64,000 nucleotides of DNA from Bacteroidia bacterium (GCA_044352985.1 JBILCU010000012.1:45428-109427), one strand, 5' to 3'; shown: positions 30,783-38,252, numbered from the stretch's first letter. Made by a program: numbers and translations. Notes: generated by a model from the letters alone, not told the origin.

Positions 30783-32024
30783 ATGAAAAAAACAATTTTA
30801 GTTACCGTGCTATTTTTCATTATGATTATAGCTAAAGCCCAACCCGGAAAAGTGCAAGCAGCTTGGCGAAATTTGTCCGATTATGAAAGTAGTTTTGATA
30901 CAACATCCTTAGCAAAAGCAAATGAAGCAATTCAGTTGGCTTTAGCTAATGAAAAAACAAAAGACGATGCCAAAACATGGATGTATAAATCAAAAATTGA
31001 ATTGTATTTATTTAAAGAAGATTACAAAAAAAATGAATTAAAAAATAAATCTAATTCGGATGCTAAAGAATTAAGTTATCACAACAGTAACTCTAAATTT
31101 ATTGATGATGCTACACAATCAATTTTAAAAACAAAAGAGCTGGATAAAGATAAATCCTATGAAAATGAAATTAAAATTTTTTACTCTCAATTGATACAAG
31201 AACTAAATAATGTAGCCTATTCAAAATACAAAGCACGAAAATTTGAAGACGCCTCTATGTTATTTTCTGATCAATATATCATTACCAAACAATTAGGGAT
31301 TGTTGATACCAATGTCTTATACAACGCTGTATTATGCGCAACAAAAACCGGTAAACATCAGTTAACTAAACAATATGCCGAAATGATGATTAATGAAAAA
31401 GTGGCTAACTCATTTGCGTATACCAGTTTGTTTGATGCAAAGCTAGCTCTTAAAGATAGCACCGGAGCTTTAGAAGCTATAAAAGCCGGTCGAGTTGCTT
31501 TTCCAAACGATACGTATTTAATGAATAAAGAAACCGAATTTTTTATACAACAAGGCAATGGTACGAAAGCATTGGAGAATTTAAATAAAGCCATTACTGC
31601 AACACCAAATAGCTCTACCTTGTATTTAGTGCGCGGAAATGTGTATGATAACATGGCTAATCCTGTGAAAGGGGATAAACCTTTAAATTTTGAAGAACTC
31701 ATGTTAAAAGCAGAACAAGATTATAAAAAAGCTACTGAATTTGATCCTGCTAGTTTTGATGCTTGGTACAATTGTGGAGCAGTGTACAATAATTTAGGTA
31801 GTTTTTATCAATACAAAGCTGATGCTATTCCGAAAATGAATGCCGAACAAAAAGCATTAAGTGAAAAAGCACAAGACTTATTTAAAAAAGCCGTGTTTAA
31901 TTTAGAGAAAGCAATGAACATTAATGCTGACGATGTTTCAACATTAACTGCTTTGCGTAAGCTTTATTTAATTATAGGTGATAAAGCTAAATCTGAGCAA
32001 ATCTCAGAAAAATTAAAAAAATAA
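30783..32024 (+). CDS. TPR-repeat protein, secreted (paralogue-like of 29290-30627)
   Basis: Signal peptide. Shares the AK(T/L)WMY(K/R) motif and TPR-like repeats with the upstream gene. Confidence 0.6.
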   Translation: MKKTILVTVLFFIMIIAKAQPGKVQAAWRNLSDYESSFDTTSLAKANEAIQLALANEKTKDDAKTWMYKSKIELYLFKEDYKKNELKNKSNSDAKELSYHNSNSKFIDDATQSILKTKELDKDKSYENEIKIFYSQLIQELNNVAYSKYKARKFEDASMLFSDQYIITKQLGIVDTNVLYNAVLCATKTGKHQLTKQYAEMMINEKVANSFAYTSLFDAKLALKDSTGALEAIKAGRVAFPNDTYLMNKETEFFIQQGNGTKALENLNKAITATPNSSTLYLVRGNVYDNMANPVKGDKPLNFEELMLKAEQDYKKATEFDPASFDAWYNCGAVYNNLGSFYQYKADAIPKMNAEQKALSEKAQDLFKKAVFNLEKAMNINADDVSTLTALRKLYLIIGDKAKSEQISEKLKK

Positions 32025-32043
32025 TAACGCAACAACTTAATTT

Positions 32044-34218
32044 ATGATAAAACAGTTTTTATTAATTGGTATCATTGCCTTTTCGTCTCAACTTTTCTCC
32101 CAAAAATCTAAAATCACTTTAGAAAATATCTGGAAAGAATACAAATTTATACCTGAACGTTTCGGTGGGTTTAACTCTATGAAAGATGGTATATCTTATA
32201 CTCAGTTGGAAGAAAACGGTGATATCAATAAATACGAATTAAAAACAGGTAAGCTTATTGCGAATATTGTTAAAGCAAACGAGTTGATAGTTTCTGGAGC
32301 AACTGATACAATTAAAGCCACATCTTACTACTTTAATGATGATGAAACCAAAATTATTTTTCCTCAAAATTACAAAGCCATTTACAGAAGATCTGGTACT
32401 GCAGAAAATTATGTGTTTGATATTAAAACCCGAAAATTAGTAAAGCTTTCCGATAAAGGTCCTCAGCTTTTTGCTCGTATGTCTTCAAAAGGAAGTAAGG
32501 TTGCTTTTGTTAGAGATAATAATCTTTTTATTAAAGATTTGGATGCGAAAACCGAAACACAAATTACACAAGACGGCGAATACAACAAGATTAAAAATGG
32601 CTGGTGCGATTGGGTGTATGAAGAAGAGTTTAGCAAAGCAGAAGCTTTTGAATGGAATGCAGATGGCAATAAAATTGCATGGATAAAATTTGATGAAAGT
32701 AAAGTGAAAGAATTTGAAATGCCGATGTATGATGGACTTTATCCTAGTCAGTACAAATTTAAATACCCAAAAGCTGGTGAGTCCAATTCCATTGTAAGTG
32801 TTTATATGTATGATTTGGCAACACAAAAAATCACCAATGTTGACATTGGAACAGAAACAGACATTTACATTCCTAGAATTAATTGGACAAAAGATCCAAA
32901 TGTACTTTCAATTCAACGAATGAATCGTTTGCAAAATAAATTAGAGTTGCTTTTTGCAGATGCACAAAGTGGTAAAACAAAAGTAATTTTAGCTGAGGAG
33001 TGTGATACTTATATTGATATCAATGATAATCTTCGTTTTTTATCCAATAATAAAGGCTTCATTTGGAGCAGTGAGCAAGATGGATTTAATCATTTGTATC
33101 ATTACGATATCAACGGAAAATTAATTAATCAAATTACAAAAGGAAACTGGGATGTAATTGATTTTAAAGGAATAGATGAAAAAACTAAAACCTTATTTTA
33201 TATTTCCACAGAATTATCTCCAAACGAAAGAGATCTTTACAGTGTTTTATTAGACGGAAAAAATAAAGTGAAACTTTCCGACAAAAGAGGAACTACCGAC
33301 GCAGATTTCAGCAGTAACTTTCAATACTATGTAAGTACCTGGAGTGATGCAAATACACCATACAAAGTAGAATTACGAGATAATAAAGGGAAATTAATTA
33401 AATCCTTGGTTGATAATAAAGATTACATAAACAAAATTGCGCAATACGAATTAACAAGTAAAACATTTTTTAAGTTTAAAACGCCTGAACAAGTAGAATT
33501 AAATGGCTGGATGATGAAGCCAGTTAATTTTGACTCAACAAAAAAATATCCTGTCTATCAATTTGCTTATGGTGGTCCGGGAAGCAATGAGTGCAACAAC
33601 CAGTGGGAAATTTATGATTACTTCTGGCATCAGTTGTTGTGTCAGCAAGGTTATATAGTTGTGTGTGTTGATGGAAGAGGAACTTTAGGCAGAGGAAAAG
33701 CATTTAAACATAGTACTTACAAGCAATTAGGTAAATTAGAAACGATTGACCAAATTGAAACAGCAAAATATTTAGGCACGCTGAAGTTTATTGATAAAAC
33801 ACGAATTGGCTTTCAGGGATGGAGTTTCGGAGGTTACCTTGCCTCATTACTCATTACAAAAGGAGCTGATTATTTTAAATCAACAATTGCGGTTGCGCCA
33901 GTTACAAATTGGAGGTATTACGACAACATTTATACCGAACGTTTTTTAAGAACACCACAGGAAAACCCAACGGGTTACGATGAAAATTCCCCAGTTTTTT
34001 TTACCAAAAAAATTAAAGGCAATTACCTATTAATTCATGGCAGTGCTGATGATAATGTACATTTGCAAAACAGCATGGAAATGACCAAAGAATTAGTTAA
34101 AAACAATATTCCGTTTGATCAATTTATTTACCCTAATAAAAATCATGGAATTTACGGGGGTAATACACGTCTACATTTGTATACAAAAATGCTGAAATTT
34201 GTGAAAGATAATTTTTAG
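32044..34218 (+). CDS. dipeptidyl-peptidase IV (S9B prolyl oligopeptidase family)
   Basis: N-terminal beta-propeller region. Catalytic Ser in GWSFGGY, Asp in GSADDNVH and His in NHGI. Confidence 0.88.
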   Translation: MIKQFLLIGIIAFSSQLFSQKSKITLENIWKEYKFIPERFGGFNSMKDGISYTQLEENGDINKYELKTGKLIANIVKANELIVSGATDTIKATSYYFNDDETKIIFPQNYKAIYRRSGTAENYVFDIKTRKLVKLSDKGPQLFARMSSKGSKVAFVRDNNLFIKDLDAKTETQITQDGEYNKIKNGWCDWVYEEEFSKAEAFEWNADGNKIAWIKFDESKVKEFEMPMYDGLYPSQYKFKYPKAGESNSIVSVYMYDLATQKITNVDIGTETDIYIPRINWTKDPNVLSIQRMNRLQNKLELLFADAQSGKTKVILAEECDTYIDINDNLRFLSNNKGFIWSSEQDGFNHLYHYDINGKLINQITKGNWDVIDFKGIDEKTKTLFYISTELSPNERDLYSVLLDGKNKVKLSDKRGTTDADFSSNFQYYVSTWSDANTPYKVELRDNKGKLIKSLVDNKDYINKIAQYELTSKTFFKFKTPEQVELNGWMMKPVNFDSTKKYPVYQFAYGGPGSNECNNQWEIYDYFWHQLLCQQGYIVVCVDGRGTLGRGKAFKHSTYKQLGKLETIDQIETAKYLGTLKFIDKTRIGFQGWSFGGYLASLLITKGADYFKSTIAVAPVTNWRYYDNIYTERFLRTPQENPTGYDENSPVFFTKKIKGNYLLIHGSADDNVHLQNSMEMTKELVKNNIPFDQFIYPNKNHGIYGGNTRLHLYTKMLKFVKDNF
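34076..34214 (+). repeat. left copy of a 139-bp direct repeat (the in-gene 3' end of the DPP-IV gene)
   Basis: 138/139 identical to 34989-35127, at an offset of 913 bp. The single mismatch, 34185 A versus 35098 C, is synonymous. Confidence 0.9.
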
Positions 34219-34271
34219 TTTTTGGTAATGGTGCCAAAAATAATTGGTAATTTTTAGAAAAAAATCAAATA

Positions 34272-34628
34272 CTAATATGCTTGAATCAATACCTCTGTAG
34301 GTATTTTCAAACTGTTGTGTAAAAGTCTAACCATTTCCAATGTTAATTTTCTTTTCTTACTCAAAATTTCGCTTGCGCGGCTTTTAAGTCCTATAACTTT
34401 GGCGAGGTCGCTTTGATTGTAGCCTAATTGCTCCATTCTAAATTTAATGGCTTCTATAGGATCGGGAAAATCAATAGGAAAGTGCTCGTCTTCATATTTT
34501 TCAATGAGAATACTCAATATTTCGAGTTCGTCACCTTCTTTTGTGTTTTTCTTCGCATCAAATAGTAACTCAAGCCTGTCGAGCGCATGCTGGTAGTCTT
34601 TTTTTGTCTTTATTGGTTTTAAAGTCAT
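34272..34628 (-). CDS. higA: HigA-type antitoxin (XRE-family HTH)
   Basis: Start set at Met28 of the tracked ORF (MTLKPIKTKKDY...), 4 nt after the higB stop. C-terminal HTH segment YNQSDLAKVIGLKSRASEILSKKRKLT. Confidence 0.8.
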   Translation of the reverse strand: MTLKPIKTKKDYQHALDRLELLFDAKKNTKEGDELEILSILIEKYEDEHFPIDFPDPIEAIKFRMEQLGYNQSDLAKVIGLKSRASEILSKKRKLTLEMVRLLHNSLKIPTEVLIQAY

Positions 34629-34632
34629 AGTC

Positions 34633-34926
34633 TTAAATTTTTGTTGCGTCAATTTTATCATATTCCGCGTGAGTTCCAATAAACCTAACCCATACGATGC
34701 GGTATTCATAATTAATTTTTACAATAAGTCGGTATGTGTTGCCTTTTATATTAAACACAACCCTATTATCGGCTAAAAAACTTGCACTTGGGTATTCTTT
34801 TTTTATCCGCTTTGGATTTTTCCAATCTGCAGTATTTACCTCTTGATACCAGGCTTTAAGTTGCTGTTCACTATCAGTATGTTTTACCCAGAATTCCCGT
34901 AATGTCTTTTTTGAAATGATCCTCAC
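34633..34926 (-). CDS. higB: HigB-type toxin (mRNA interferase family)
   Basis: 97 aa, MRIISKKTLREFW...VFNIKGNTYRLIVKINY...VWVRFIGTHAEYDKI, typical of the HigB toxin family. GTG start. Toxin-first gene order as in higBA. Confidence 0.8.
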   Translation of the reverse strand: MRIISKKTLREFWVKHTDSEQQLKAWYQEVNTADWKNPKRIKKEYPSASFLADNRVVFNIKGNTYRLIVKINYEYRIVWVRFIGTHAEYDKIDATKI

Positions 34927-34942
34927 ATCAAAATAATTTTTT

Positions 34943-34950
34943 CAAATATA
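34943..34950 (-). promoter_or_regulatory. TAnnTTTG -7 box (TATATTTG on the minus strand) upstream of higB
   Basis: Exact motif 17 nt upstream of the higB GTG. Confidence 0.4.
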
Positions 34951-34988
34951 ATCAAAAGTTCCCGAAATGGGATTTTTTTTGATAAAAT

Positions 34989-35131
34989 TGGAAATGACCA
35001 AAGAATTAGTTAAAAACAATATTCCGTTTGATCAATTTATTTACCCTAATAAAAATCATGGAATTTACGGGGGTAATACACGTCTACATTTGTATACCAA
35101 AATGCTGAAATTTGTGAAAGATAATTTATAA
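34989..35131 (+). pseudogene. detached duplicate of the last ~46 codons of the DPP-IV gene (right copy of the 139-bp direct repeat)
   Basis: Same reading frame and stop position as the intact gene (TAA at 35129-35131). The last codon is Leu instead of Phe. No upstream coding context. Confidence 0.85.
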
Positions 35132-35135
35132 AAAC

Positions 35136-35501
35136 TTAAATCGCATTTTTTGTTTTTTCAGTAAACCATTTTTTAATGTCAGTTTTTAGTTCGGACATCT
35201 GATGTTTCATGCTTTTAAATTCTTCTTCTATTTTATCTTTGGCTTCTGCTTTACCTAATGCAAATTGCACTTCCATTTCGTCCATTTTCTGTTTTAAAGG
35301 AGTTAATTTACTATTGATGTTTTTTTGCATAGGAGTTTCACCTCTTTTAAATTGATTTACTTTTTTAGTAAAATCTTTTTTAAATGTTTGATAATTATCT
35401 TTTAGTTCCTCTTTTCCTAATTCTGCCTGCACTTGAAGTTCTTCAAGCTGAGTGACACTTTTTTTTAAGAAAGTGATCATTTCATCACCAATATGTTTCA
35501 T
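35136..35501 (-). CDS. hypothetical helical/coiled-coil protein
   Basis: 121-aa K/E-rich ORF with an ATG start. No motif recognised. Confidence 0.45.
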   Translation of the reverse strand: MKHIGDEMITFLKKSVTQLEELQVQAELGKEELKDNYQTFKKDFTKKVNQFKRGETPMQKNINSKLTPLKQKMDEMEVQFALGKAEAKDKIEEEFKSMKHQMSELKTDIKKWFTEKTKNAI

Positions 35502-35603
35502 TTTTTTTGCACAAATTTATATTGATGTTTCTTGTTTGTAAATGAGTTTCACTTGATTTAAGAATTAATTGAAATGATTTTTTTCTTTTCTAGTACTTAT
35601 TAA

Positions 35604-35611
35604 TATATTTG
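35604..35611 (+). promoter_or_regulatory. TAnnTTTG -7 box (TATATTTG) upstream of the bTHX gene
   Basis: Exact motif 19 nt upstream of the ATG at 35630. Confidence 0.45.
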
Positions 35612-35629
35612 TGTATTAAACTAATTTTT

Positions 35630-35743
35630 ATGGGAAAAGGTGATCAACGTTCTAAAAAAGGAAAAATTGCAGTAGGCTCTTATGGTAAATCCAGACCTAA
35701 AAAAAAATCTGGTAAACCTGCAGTAGCAAAAGCAAAAAAATAA
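35630..35743 (+). CDS. 30S ribosomal protein bTHX (37 aa)
   Basis: Manual translation gives MGKGDQRSKKGKIAVGSYGKSRPKKKSGKPAVAKAKK. The MGKGD..(K/R)GK...G(S/T)YGK.RP(R/K)K pattern matches Thermus/Bacteroidota THX. It is below the ORF-track size cut-off and is flanked by a promoter box and a strong terminator. Confidence 0.8.
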   Translation: MGKGDQRSKKGKIAVGSYGKSRPKKKSGKPAVAKAKK

Positions 35744-35773
35744 TTGATGCCTTAAGGCGAATAATTATTAAAC

Positions 35774-35801
35774 AAAAAGCCGAAATTAATTTCGGCTTTT
35801 T
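35774..35801 (+). terminator. rho-independent terminator after the bTHX gene
   Basis: AAAAAGCCGAAAT-TA-ATTTCGGCTTTTT perfect palindrome with a trailing T-run. Confidence 0.75.
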
Positions 35802-35889
35802 GCATTTAAACAGGTATTTAGAATTTGCTTAGATTCTCTATTAAAATCCACTTAAAAACTCTCTTTTCTAAATTTTGAACTTTCTTTTG

Positions 35890-36117
35890 CTTGATTAGGG
35901 CAAATGTGCAATGCACATTTGAGCCAGGCTGAGCGAAGCAAGAATGAAAAAGAAATCAAGACGCTGCGATACCTTCGTTCCTCACACAATTTTTACGCTC
36001 GCACCTCCCACAAATTCGCTCAATTACCCACTGGATAATTGCCGTACTTCGTGCTGCGCTAAAATTGGCTCACCGCTACTCAGCATCGAGCAGCGTCAAG
36101 GCTTACACGCTATTAAA
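35890..36117 (+). other. GC-rich (~50% by eye) noncoding island directly 5' of structured element copy B
   Basis: Composition contrasts sharply with the flanks. Contains hairpin CAAATGTG-CAATG-CACATTTG (35901-35921). Potential long-range pairs are GACGCTGC (35960-35967) with GCAGCGTC (36091-36098), and GAGCGAA with TTCGCTC. The 71-aa ORF here is not protein-like. Confidence 0.3.
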
Positions 36118-36273
36118 ATTGAAATTGACGTAGCAAAAGCAATTAAAAGCGTTAATTAACGCCGAAGCCTTGGAGGCGTTTTAGCTTTTGATTGCTGGTC
36201 TCGAGCATTGCTCGAGATTGCCTTGGCAATTTCTAGACTTTTTGCACACTTTTTTGGCAATGAAAAAAGTGTG
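36118..36273 (+). ncRNA. candidate structured RNA / structured repeat, copy B
   Basis: Same conserved blocks and hairpin architecture as 6787-6945. It ends in an 11-bp hairpin, CACACTTTTTT-GGCAATG-AAAAAAGTGTG (36245-36273). Confidence 0.45.
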
Positions 36274-36488
36274 AAGAAATTTAAAATTGACTTTTTTAGG
36301 CTCTATATAGTTTCCCCTCAAAAGCTTGAAAGCAAAAAATTCAATTAAACCTATTGATTTATGAGGTCATTAAAACACCAAGAATTTTTCCAATTATTCA
36401 AGTTTATCGCAGATTTTTCTTTTTTGATGGTTAAAAAAAAGAAAAATAAAGTGGGTTATATAACAAAGGTTGTTATAAAAATTTGAAA

Positions 36489-38252
36489 TTATCTTTCAAG
36501 AAGCTTCAGTGCTTCTTTAATTTCAATTCGTGTATTGTTTTTAAAAGCAACAACAAAAGCATCTTTAAAACCTGCAGTTTTAAGTTTTGCCTGATGAACT
36601 ATTGCTTCATCAAGTTTTATGAAATTACCTGAAGTATATTTAAAAATAGTACCCATTTTATAATACCAAACTTGTTCTACATTTTTAAAATAATCAGCTT
36701 TAATAGCTAATTCTTTTTCAAATGAAGCAAATTGAACTTTAAAACAAACTTCCTGATTATTGTTTTTTGGTGATTGAACAATGGAATCTTTTTTATTCTT
36801 ATTGTAATTTTTAATTAGATCGTTTGCAGTTACTTTTTTAGTAGTATCAGTAACACTGCTTTTTTCAAGATCATTTATTTCTGATAATTTTAATTTTGGG
36901 TACTTTTCACCAGGTTTGGTAATTAATGCTTCTTGATATTTTTTCCTTGCTGCATCATATTCGTTCTTGTTCAAAAATAAATCAGCCTCCTTAATTTGTT
37001 GACTGTATAAGGTGTTTTGTTGATCTAAAGCTTTTTGTTTTTCTTTTTCTGCTTTAATTATATCTTTTTCTAATTGGTCAATTTCAGAAAGTTTATTTTT
37101 ACAATACATGTCATTAGATTTTATAATTAGCGCAGCATTATAATCTAATTTTGCTTCACTTAACTTCCGTTCTTTTAATTTAGTGTCAGCAGATTTTATA
37201 AGTGTATTATACTTTTCATCGTTCAAATTTGTGGTACTACTATCTGACTTTTCTTCTTCCTGATTTTCTTTATTTTTTAATTCAGGATGTTCTCTTTCAA
37301 AAACTAAATTCTCATTTTCTAACGGTTCTAATTTGTCTATTTCATCGGTATAATTATCAGATTTGTTTTCAATTTCATTTTTATAATTACGTAAAGCTCT
37401 GAAAATAGAGCTTGCAAGGTAAGTTTGACCTTTATCTGAACCTAAAAATTTTTCTTCAATTGGGTTCGTTAAAAATCCTACTTCCGTTAAAATACTTGGC
37501 ATTGCTGTTCGCCATAATACCCAGATACTTTGTCGCTGAACTCCTTTATCAATTCGGCCGGCTTTATCTTTGTATTCTTTTTGAATGAAGGAGGCAAATT
37601 TTGCACTTTGTTCTACATAAGCACTTGTTGTTAAACTCATGATGATGTATGCTTCATCGCTATTAGGGTCAAATCCATTATAGGTTTTTTCGTAGTTGTC
37701 CTCGAGTAACATGGAAGCATTTTCTCGTTTAGCTACTTCCATTTTACCTTTTTCATTTTTTAAACCCATTACATAGGTTTCCGATCCGTAAGGAATGGGG
37801 TTTACGGTTTCTTTTTTATGAATTTTTCCTTTTTTGTCCTTCCATGTTTTGTAGTGTGTTTTCCCATTTTTATCTTTATAAGTAACGTATTTTGCAGCGG
37901 CATTACAGTGAATGGAAATGAATAAATCGGCATTATTTCTGTTTGCAATTTGAGCACGTTCTTCTAACTCAACAAATACATCAGAAGTGCGTGTATAAAT
38001 AACTTTAACATCTTTTAGTTTTTCTTCAATCAATTTGCCTAATTTTAGCGCAATGGCTAAGGTTACTTCTTTTTCATTATGCACTGCACCGTTACAACCA
38101 GGGTCTTTGCCGCCGTGGCCGGCATCAATAACAACTATTTTAATTCCCTTTCCAATTTTTGGAACATGAAAAGAACTAAAAAGTAAACTTAAACACACTA
38201 TTAACACTACATTAACCGTATTAAGCAAATATTTGTGTGCGTTAGTTTTCAT
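36489..38252 (-). CDS. N-acetylmuramoyl-L-alanine amidase (Amidase_3/AmiC-like) with coiled-coil/TPR-like linker and C-terminal SPOR-like domain
   Basis: VVIDAGHGGKDPG and SIHCNA zinc-amidase motifs. C-terminal FKVQFASFEKE...AFVVAF resembles SPOR. Start moved to the ATG at 38252, because the tracked start is a TTG 3 codons upstream. Confidence 0.85.
   Translation of the reverse strand: MKTNAHKYLLNTVNVVLIVCLSLLFSSFHVPKIGKGIKIVVIDAGHGGKDPGCNGAVHNEKEVTLAIALKLGKLIEEKLKDVKVIYTRTSDVFVELEERAQIANRNNADLFISIHCNAAAKYVTYKDKNGKTHYKTWKDKKGKIHKKETVNPIPYGSETYVMGLKNEKGKMEVAKRENASMLLEDNYEKTYNGFDPNSDEAYIIMSLTTSAYVEQSAKFASFIQKEYKDKAGRIDKGVQRQSIWVLWRTAMPSILTEVGFLTNPIEEKFLGSDKGQTYLASSIFRALRNYKNEIENKSDNYTDEIDKLEPLENENLVFEREHPELKNKENQEEEKSDSSTTNLNDEKYNTLIKSADTKLKERKLSEAKLDYNAALIIKSNDMYCKNKLSEIDQLEKDIIKAEKEKQKALDQQNTLYSQQIKEADLFLNKNEYDAARKKYQEALITKPGEKYPKLKLSEINDLEKSSVTDTTKKVTANDLIKNYNKNKKDSIVQSPKNNNQEVCFKVQFASFEKELAIKADYFKNVEQVWYYKMGTIFKYTSGNFIKLDEAIVHQAKLKTAGFKDAFVVAFKNNTRIEIKEALKLLER

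Follow-up and report, generated by a model that had tools for sequence, protein, structure and literature searches.

A higBA toxin-antitoxin pair inserted behind a peptidase gene of a freshwater Bacteroidota, between gene-end copies of mixed lineage

The higBA cassette and its flanking repeat

In the genome of a freshwater Bacteroidota (G000), a higBA toxin-antitoxin pair lies between two direct copies of the 3′ end of a dipeptidyl-peptidase IV gene. The locus is part of a 64,000-nt stretch of contig C23 (G000:C23:45428-109427; hereafter the window, in whose positions all coordinates are given unless a contig is named). A repeat search of 31000-38000 returned a direct pair of 142 nt (34076-34217 and 34989-35130) with a spacing of 913 bp, the next-longest repeats in the same interval being only 27-30 nt long and 70-77% identical. 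Alignment of 34076-34214 with 34989-35127 gives 138 identical positions out of 139. The repeat contains the last 46 codons of the peptidase gene, including an NHG motif that we take to carry the catalytic His of S9 peptidases. The sole internal difference between the copies, ACA versus ACC, is synonymous (Thr), and at their ends the copy attached to the gene reads TTT TAG and the detached copy TTA TAA, exchanging Phe for Leu and leaving the position of the stop unchanged. A preceding reading of the window from sequence alone had described this repeat, its single synonymous difference, its conserved frame and stop and the Leu-for-Phe final codon, and both the repeat search and the alignment agree with it.

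The two copies are separated by 774 bp that hold a remnant of the end of an insertion sequence (IS), higA, higB and a promoter. The sequence-only reading had placed nothing but higB and higA between the copies; this was wrong, as 34224-34262 is the remnant of an IS256-family terminal inverted repeat. The features of the locus are listed below, where "attached" and "detached" refer to the peptidase gene and contigs L082, L087 and L088 represent a sister lineage.

32044-34218, plus strand: dipeptidyl-peptidase IV (S9 family) gene, intact, 724 aa (Pfam DPPIV_N, E 4e-104; Peptidase_S9, E 2.7e-53)
34076-34214, plus strand: attached (left) repeat copy, in G000 of sister-lineage ("insert") type over its full length (allele comparison)
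34213-34223, plus strand: donor-type last codon, stop and 5-nt flank (TTT TAG TTTTT), identical to the native ends of L082, L087 and L088 and abutting the IS end
34224-34262, plus strand: remnant of the terminal inverted repeat at the transposase-distal end of an IS256-family IS of ~1265 bp (BLAST, motif alignment)
34272-34628, minus strand: higA, antitoxin, 118 aa, HTH_3 (Pfam HTH_3, E 9e-7)
34633-34926, minus strand: higB, RelE-like toxin, 97 aa, GTG start, first gene of the operon (PF09907 HigB_toxin, E 1.9e-34)
34927-34988, minus strand: promoter region and right end of the cargo (sequence reading)
34967-35131, plus strand: 54-codon open frame that begins in the cargo and crosses the detached copy (listing of open reading frames, ORFs)
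34989-35127, plus strand: detached (right) repeat copy, contiguous with ancestral downstream DNA (allele comparison)
35136-35501, minus strand: convergent coiled-coil gene, 121 aa, function unassigned (ORF listing, gene tables)

In its predicted organization the cargo resembles HigBA type II systems, with a PF09907 toxin gene placed first, upstream of an HTH_3 antitoxin gene on the same strand and 4 nt from it, behind what appears to be a promoter of its own. HigB is known as a RelE-like, ribosome-dependent mRNA interferase and HigA as a helix-turn-helix antitoxin. The PF09907 match of HigB is full length (profile positions 2-74 of 74); unlike known HigBA proteins, however, neither product matches an NCBIfam model. 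On the minus strand, 18 nt upstream of the higB start, lies a TATATTTG box (34944-34951), the Bacteroidota −7 promoter consensus being TAnnTTTG. At the right end of the cargo, ...GATAAAAT joins the start of the repeat, TGGAAATG; this junction recurs unchanged in three contigs (L078, L079 and L081) and slightly altered in L080, and similarity to the higBA module of another genome, G004, extends to 34972. The 54-codon frame that crosses the same junction is probably a by-product rather than a gene, and was left uncalled by the gene callers in L078-L080.

Homologues of HigA with 59-76% amino acid identity adjoin higB in six other genomes, where the higBA homologues stand in unrelated contexts without gene-end duplications. 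The 79-nt repeats around a higBA copy in G035 were considered as a target duplication and set aside, having the look of a dispersed intergenic element. This element (L058, G035:C23 3012-3090 and 4574-4652; 82% identical between copies) occurs 5-9 nt past the stops of two genes, one the higA homologue and the other a different gene, and looks like a dispersed post-stop intergenic element of G035.

The IS remnant starts at 34224 with GGTAATGGTGCCAAAAATAATTGGTAATTTT, and its outer end faces the peptidase gene. Eight further genomes of the family have multiple copies of the 31-nt terminal motif, in most cases at ~60-250 nt from a contig end. Among 30 aligned copies, unrelated DNA precedes GGTAATGG and conserved sequence follows it; the flanks diverge exactly at this point, and the motif is therefore the outer terminus of an insertion sequence. 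The window remnant matches the canonical end at 28 of 31 nt (3 mismatches) and IS positions 1-39 at 90% identity by BLAST; by eye, the IS-like region reaches as far as the higA stop codon, which overlaps its end. A full copy of the IS, found in L041, measures ~1265 bp, has imperfect terminal repeats and encodes a 326-aa transposase matching NF048019 (IS256 family, variant Zn-binding type) with 163 bits against a cut-off of 150. A search of the G000 genome found two solo ends of this IS only, with no transposase, no second end and no complete copy, so that the IS component of the window is a solo-end remnant, not an element. The higBA operon reads toward the IS end, the direction in which the transposase gene of the intact IS is also read.

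G000 has one other solo end (G000:C8:16467-16497; L024 1501-1531), which lies just past the stop of a 1049-aa helicase-like gene, ahead of a convergent toxin-antitoxin operon that consists of a hipA-like gene (359-412 aa) and a 98-aa partner and is not flanked by a duplication. In G003, helicase and hipBA modules are found on separate contigs, and the match ends at the IS end.

Empty sites and the alleles of the gene end

The structure is an insertion, because empty sites exist in the same species, in a congener and in the sister lineage. In the congener G001 (84% identity) the peptidase gene is followed directly, at a distance of 4 nt, by the convergent gene. Within the species, empty sites are found in L084 (JGI), which is 98.8-99.4% identical to the window over 6.6 kb, and in L093; the sister lineage contributes those of L082, L087 and L088 (88-93%). 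At the same-species empty sites and in G001 the peptidase gene ends TTA TAA and continues into the DNA found past the detached copy in the window, and gene tables for L082, L084, L087, L088 and L093 place the convergent gene 4 nt from the peptidase stop. The comparison of dpp4 downstream regions that the sequence-only reading had proposed as a check on insertion bears it out through these empty sites.

The filled configuration is likewise found elsewhere. Its left junction recurs in the independent metagenome contigs L085 and L086 and its right junction in L078, L079 and L080, which come from other samples and pipelines; moreover, one 3062-bp contig, represented by its gene table only, lists in order the convergent gene, a 205-nt gap, higB, higA and the peptidase gene. 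The structure is not peculiar to the G000 assembly. A pattern scan of metagenomes for the detached or the empty configuration, in which near-identical records may be missing, gave no match, and JGI contigs that bear the pattern, such as L079, were not returned by it either. In 17 other genomes (L005-L021), the 1.5 kb past the peptidase gene contain neither the convergent gene nor extra peptidase fragments.

The descent of the two copies was followed at 154 sites (32200-34226) at which the allele of L084, scored as native, differs from that shared by L087 and L088, scored as sister. The peptidase gene of G000 is native almost throughout, including all 18 sites between 33810 and 34074, and is sister-type from 34086 to the gene end; the switch falls between 34074 and 34086, at most 12 bp from the start of the repeat at 34076. 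Expressed as mismatches, the 300 nt upstream of the repeat show 2 to L084 and 19 to L088, and the attached copy with the 9 nt that follow it (34076-34223) shows 17 to L084 and 4 to L088, with which L087 is identical. The detached copy has 3 mismatches to L088 and 10 to L084, all 10 of them in its first 101 nt; it is insert-type at repeat positions 1-101 and native-type from position 110 (ACC, TTA TAA). The coding differences between the G000 repeat and the empty allele of L084 comprise 12 synonymous changes and 1 non-synonymous change, an excess which means that each allele evolved in a gene that was functional, and which excludes a local duplication followed by decay.

Between the repeat and the IS end stand 11 nt (T TAG TTTTT after ...GATAATTT) that also form, without a change, the native gene end and flank in L082, L087 and L088; in the species itself the native end is TTA TAA AAACTT. 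As this junction is a gene end of the sister lineage, the cargo must have arrived attached to another lineage's gene end, and, as judged from these alleles, the apparent duplicate is shown to be imported homology, not a copied target. The proposal made from sequence alone, that a replacement copy of the gene's 3′ end came in with the insert, is thereby upheld by how the attached copy ends (last codon, stop and 5 nt). The companion proposal, that the detached copy is the ancestral gene end, holds for its 3′ tip and the DNA that follows but not for its first ~100 nt, which are insert-type in G000. Between the lineages the peptidase gene is 88-93% identical but the downstream gene only 79%; good homology was therefore available on one side only.

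Other filled strains carry other combinations of the two alleles. The attached copies of L085 and L086 are native-type at repeat positions 38-101 and at ACC, and then run into TTT TAG TTTTT and the IS end; taken with the detached copy of G000, they look like the reciprocal hybrids that one crossover near the 3′ end would produce. The last ~38 nt of the repeat are identical in both alleles, and the crossover would lie there. The detached copies of L078/L079, L080 and L081 switch type at differing points. By eye, nine positions distinguish L078/L079 from the window, all lying among nt 1-100 of the detached copy; the BLAST match, 901-928 bp long, has 10 mismatches and 1 gap altogether, so that the remainder is essentially identical. 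An initial idea, that the detached copies of L078-L080 are simply native and were homogenised in G000, was revised after inspection of L085/L086, L087/L088 and L093.

Since the copies of other filled strains are mosaics, and since the G000 repeat differs from the empty allele of its own species, the near-identity of the two G000 copies (138/139) is secondary, reflecting later homogenisation, and is no sign of a fresh or local duplication. The empty site of L093 is of a further kind: in this part of the gene it differs from L084 at 12 positions, none of them outside the repeat, and joins ACA, otherwise seen only in the attached copy of G000, to the detached-specific TTA TAA. Excision between the two copies, or allelic exchange, would be expected to yield the allele pattern of L093.

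The body of the peptidase gene (32200-34075) is itself a mosaic of native and sister-type patches, for example at 33594-33777 in G000 and at 33852-34041, which is sister-type in L085/L086. At the level of sequence, this mosaic shows frequent exchange between the lineages that is independent of the insert.

Further gene-end duplications in G000

Comparison of the G000 genome with itself revealed two further gene-end duplications that flank cargo, of 270 and 292 nt.

G000:C28 188208-188477 and 189808-190077 (L060 2209-4078): 270-nt repeat, 97% identical, 3′ end of an AcrB-like efflux-pump gene
G000:C7 105410-105701 and 110037-110328 (L059): 292-nt repeat, 99.3% identical, 3′ end of an aminotransferase gene

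The cargo on C28 consists of a ~540-nt dispersed repeat and a DUF6364/PIN (vapBC-like) pair, whose operon is convergent on the efflux-pump gene. G001 is empty at this site. Both copies end in GGG TAA, and the detached copy alone, the first ~40 nt of which have diverged while the remaining 230 nt are identical, continues into downstream DNA of G001 type. An 11-nt microhomology (AAATTTATTTT) at the join between cargo and gene interior suggests how joins of this kind may form. The 4.3-kb cargo on C7 contains six small ORFs, none with a Pfam match; the stop is TGA in the attached copy and the genus-typical TAA in the detached copy, which abuts a convergent leucine-rich repeat gene, and no empty site was found for this locus.

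A vapBC cassette is also seen next to higBA in one scaffold, L081 (ENA ERZ28593336 scaffold_36289, 1-2987), whose higBA is 97.5% identical to that of the window and is followed on the promoter side by the start of the detached copy. Directly past the higA stop, the IS end is replaced by the dispersed repeat of the C28 locus and a vapBC cassette with 93% identity to the cargo there, and the 0.9 kb on the far side match nothing in G000 or in any other sequence compared. A larger insert in that strain and a chimeric scaffold are the two explanations; unless the second applies, cassettes may be combined differently between strains.

The dispersed repeat belongs to a family of up to ~540 nt, represented at ~35847-35900 of the window, at G000:C28:189221-189760 and at ~44 further positions of the genome; both G000 and G001 have many partial copies of it. 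Its fragment in the window lies just downstream of the region of the detached copy. In the same neighbourhood, a plus-strand ORF of 44 codons at 35609-35743, with a high content of Lys, Gly and Arg, probably encodes the small ribosomal protein Thx, because the corresponding gene in the empty-site contigs carries PF17070. An Rfam search of 33000-36500 gave nothing relevant.

Routes of insertion and relation to known systems

The explanation that we favour, and consider moderately probable, is a recombinase-free, homology-driven insertion of Campbell type, by which a unit of gene end, IS end and higBA entered the locus, followed by recombination between the resulting copies. According to the junction sequence, an IS256-family element, or a higBA-bearing derivative of one, would have lain 5 nt past the peptidase stop in the donor sister lineage. 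A small DNA made up of the last 139 nt of the donor gene, its stop, 5 nt, the IS end and higA-higB would then have reached a cell with an empty site, most simply as a circle of ~913 bp closed by an illegitimate join of the far end of the cargo to the interior of the gene. IS256-type transposases normally make circles, and such an enzyme may have made the first one by aberrant strand transfer from the single IS end. One Campbell-type crossover between this DNA and the resident gene end would leave the gene intact, the cargo behind it and a second gene end in front of the old downstream DNA. That the copies afterwards exchanged sequence, through gene conversion or through rounds of excision and re-insertion, is shown by the strain-specific mosaics and the near-identity in G000. 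Recombination between the 139-nt direct repeats could also delete the insert; by analogy with other systems of this type, HigB, as a RelE-like mRNA interferase, would outlast HigA and so penalise cells that lose the pair, which may be why toxin-antitoxin cargo survives between such repeats.

The parallel is with insertion-duplication as practised with suicide plasmids, in which a circle with one homologous segment enters by a single Campbell-type crossover and a second crossover results in allelic exchange. As in that case, the homology is duplicated around the insert. Each hybrid of a reciprocal pair is seen, the left one in L085/L086 and the right one in G000, but in separate strains; as after a second crossover, the empty site of L093 keeps the incoming allele. 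Unlike the laboratory procedure, the insertion is natural and ~0.9 kb long and has no replication or transfer functions, and its circle is a proposed intermediate.

Several points weigh against this account. No single readable contig shows both reciprocal hybrids. In G000, the attached copy is insert-type throughout and the detached copy insert-type at positions 1-101, which is not the primary product of a single crossover; the pair needs either one later conversion or a chimeric consensus in a metagenome-assembled genome (MAG). A single conversion from the detached to the attached copy, bounded by the edge of homology, explains both the pairing in G000 and the switch at the edge of the repeat, and a chimeric MAG consensus of two haplotypes would explain the pairing equally. 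An equal number of later conversions is needed, however, if the crossover took place at the 5′ edge of the repeat, as in the e14-like integration considered below. The donor arrangement, with cargo past the gene and no duplication, was not found. L093 could have come from ordinary exchange between strains, not excision, and, given the sister-type patches upstream of the repeat in L085/L086, some of the allele patterns may be unrelated to insertion.

Elements such as e14 and phage 21 carry a replacement 3′ end of their target gene, icd of E. coli. Integration of the same kind, through a crossover at the 5′ edge made by a tyrosine or serine recombinase of the element, with later deletion down to higBA, or by a recombinase acting in trans, is in our view unlikely. 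The likeness is considerable: a synonymous-variant copy of the last 100-200 nt of a gene has been imported, the gene remains intact and its old end is left as a fragment. The element-borne replacement gene end is real, the attached copy of G000 is insert-type from the first informative site of the repeat, the detached copies of L078/L079 are largely native, and the second toxin-antitoxin cassette beside higBA in L081 hints at a larger island in some strains. Unlike e14 and phage 21, however, which have an integrase and a fixed core, the present insert has no recombinase and its exchange points vary. A PF00589 search of the whole genome gave nine matches, none of them in the cargo or on C23, in line with the statement of the sequence-only reading that no integrase remains; the match nearest to any of the three duplication sites is ~145 kb away, on C7. 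A serine recombinase, for which no separate search was made, would not fit into the 774-bp cargo, and L081 has no recombinase either. A fixed crossover core is not supported, as exchange points differ among G000, L078-L081 and L085/L086, and the repeats at the three loci, 139, 270 and 292 nt long, have by eye no core in common at their boundaries. Moreover, the attached copies of L085/L086 are mostly native, so that a fixed 5′ crossover would require later conversion there. For these reasons the analogy with tRNA-targeting islands and their site-specific integrases, drawn when only the sequence had been read, is not favoured; the accompanying suggestion of a scar left by a larger island retains one weak hint, the neighbouring cassettes of L081.

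It is similarly improbable that the duplication arose once, elsewhere and by a route unknown, and then spread by double crossovers in its flanks, so that the mosaics would be uninformative on its origin. L085/L086 are indeed sister-type upstream of the repeat as well (33852-34041), and the peptidase gene is mosaic in all strains. The switch in G000, however, lies no more than 12 bp from the repeat edge, a rare placement for a random crossover, and the insert-type patch of L093 is confined to the repeat; in addition, the downstream arm available for such exchange is just 79% identical between the lineages, and the origin of the duplication would be left unexplained.

A true long target duplication, in which nicks staggered by 139 nt are filled in and both copies are at first native and identical, is very unlikely. 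It would suit the 138/139 identity of the G000 copies and belongs to a class described for restriction-modification units, but another lineage's last codon, stop and 5 nt in the attached copy argue strongly against it, as do the 12 synonymous differences and 1 non-synonymous difference between the G000 repeat and the empty allele of the same species, and the several positions at which the copies of other strains differ from each other. A tandem duplication of repeat and cargo together was dropped, there being one cargo copy only and the second repeat running into native DNA.

Least probable of all is an assembly artefact, whether a loop or a strain mixture threaded once through a shared 139-nt node: G000 is apparently metagenome-assembled (its closest protein relatives are labelled MAGs) and its left/right pairing is not a primary crossover product, but both junctions recur in assemblies made independently, by other pipelines and from other samples (L078-L080, L085, L086), the 3062-bp contig spans the whole structure by its gene table, and L080 has junction-specific changes within ~25 nt of copy-specific variants.

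Insertions with long target duplications have been described for restriction-modification units, which are small, addiction-type gene units that have no mobility gene of their own and are absent from the corresponding site of a related genome (Nobusato 2000, Gene 259:99; Furuta 2010, PMC2853133). Their direct repeats vary in length from 30 to >400 bp, both align with the single target copy, often overlapping the 3′ end of a gene (PMC2853133), and breakage by the cargo's own nuclease was suggested by the authors of the class (Nobusato 2000; Furuta 2010, PMC2853133). The insert described here is likewise absent from related genomes, remains below the 20 kb without a mobility gene that delimit the class, and is flanked by repeats that exceed 30 bp, at 139 nt, and both align with a single gene end. 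It differs in that its cargo is HigB/HigA, not a restriction-modification unit, in the IS-end remnant at one boundary, and in its repeat, which is not a local copy of the target: one end, and most of both G000 copies, are sister-type. Because one "duplicate" came from another lineage, its import points to homologous recombination rather than to breakage by a cargo nuclease. The idea of a penalty on loss of the cargo parallels the discussion of restriction-modification units by Furuta 2010 (PMC2853133). The locus brings a toxin-antitoxin cargo and unusually informative population data to a known but mechanistically unexplained class of insertion.

A broader possibility, which we raise tentatively, is that toxin-antitoxin cassettes in this population act as recombinase-free mobile units, travelling as small circles with a captured gene end that enter any related chromosome by RecA at that gene end and leave by the same homology. 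Gene-end alleles may then be swapped in each round, with the toxin punishing loss and the circle perhaps first made by an IS256-type transposase, and the strain-specific exchange points would represent independent insertions, not later conversions.

In summary, the movement of chromosomal toxin-antitoxin modules is poorly understood, most of them having no adjoining mobility gene, and the long flanking duplications of restriction-modification units have been known for more than 20 years without a mechanism. At the locus described here, one natural population offers an empty site, several filled versions, the donor-type allele and an empty site with the incoming allele, and homologous recombination combined with post-segregational killing provides a testable explanation for the whole class of insertions. 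Such inserts would, in addition, be able to replace a housekeeping gene's end by a foreign allele.

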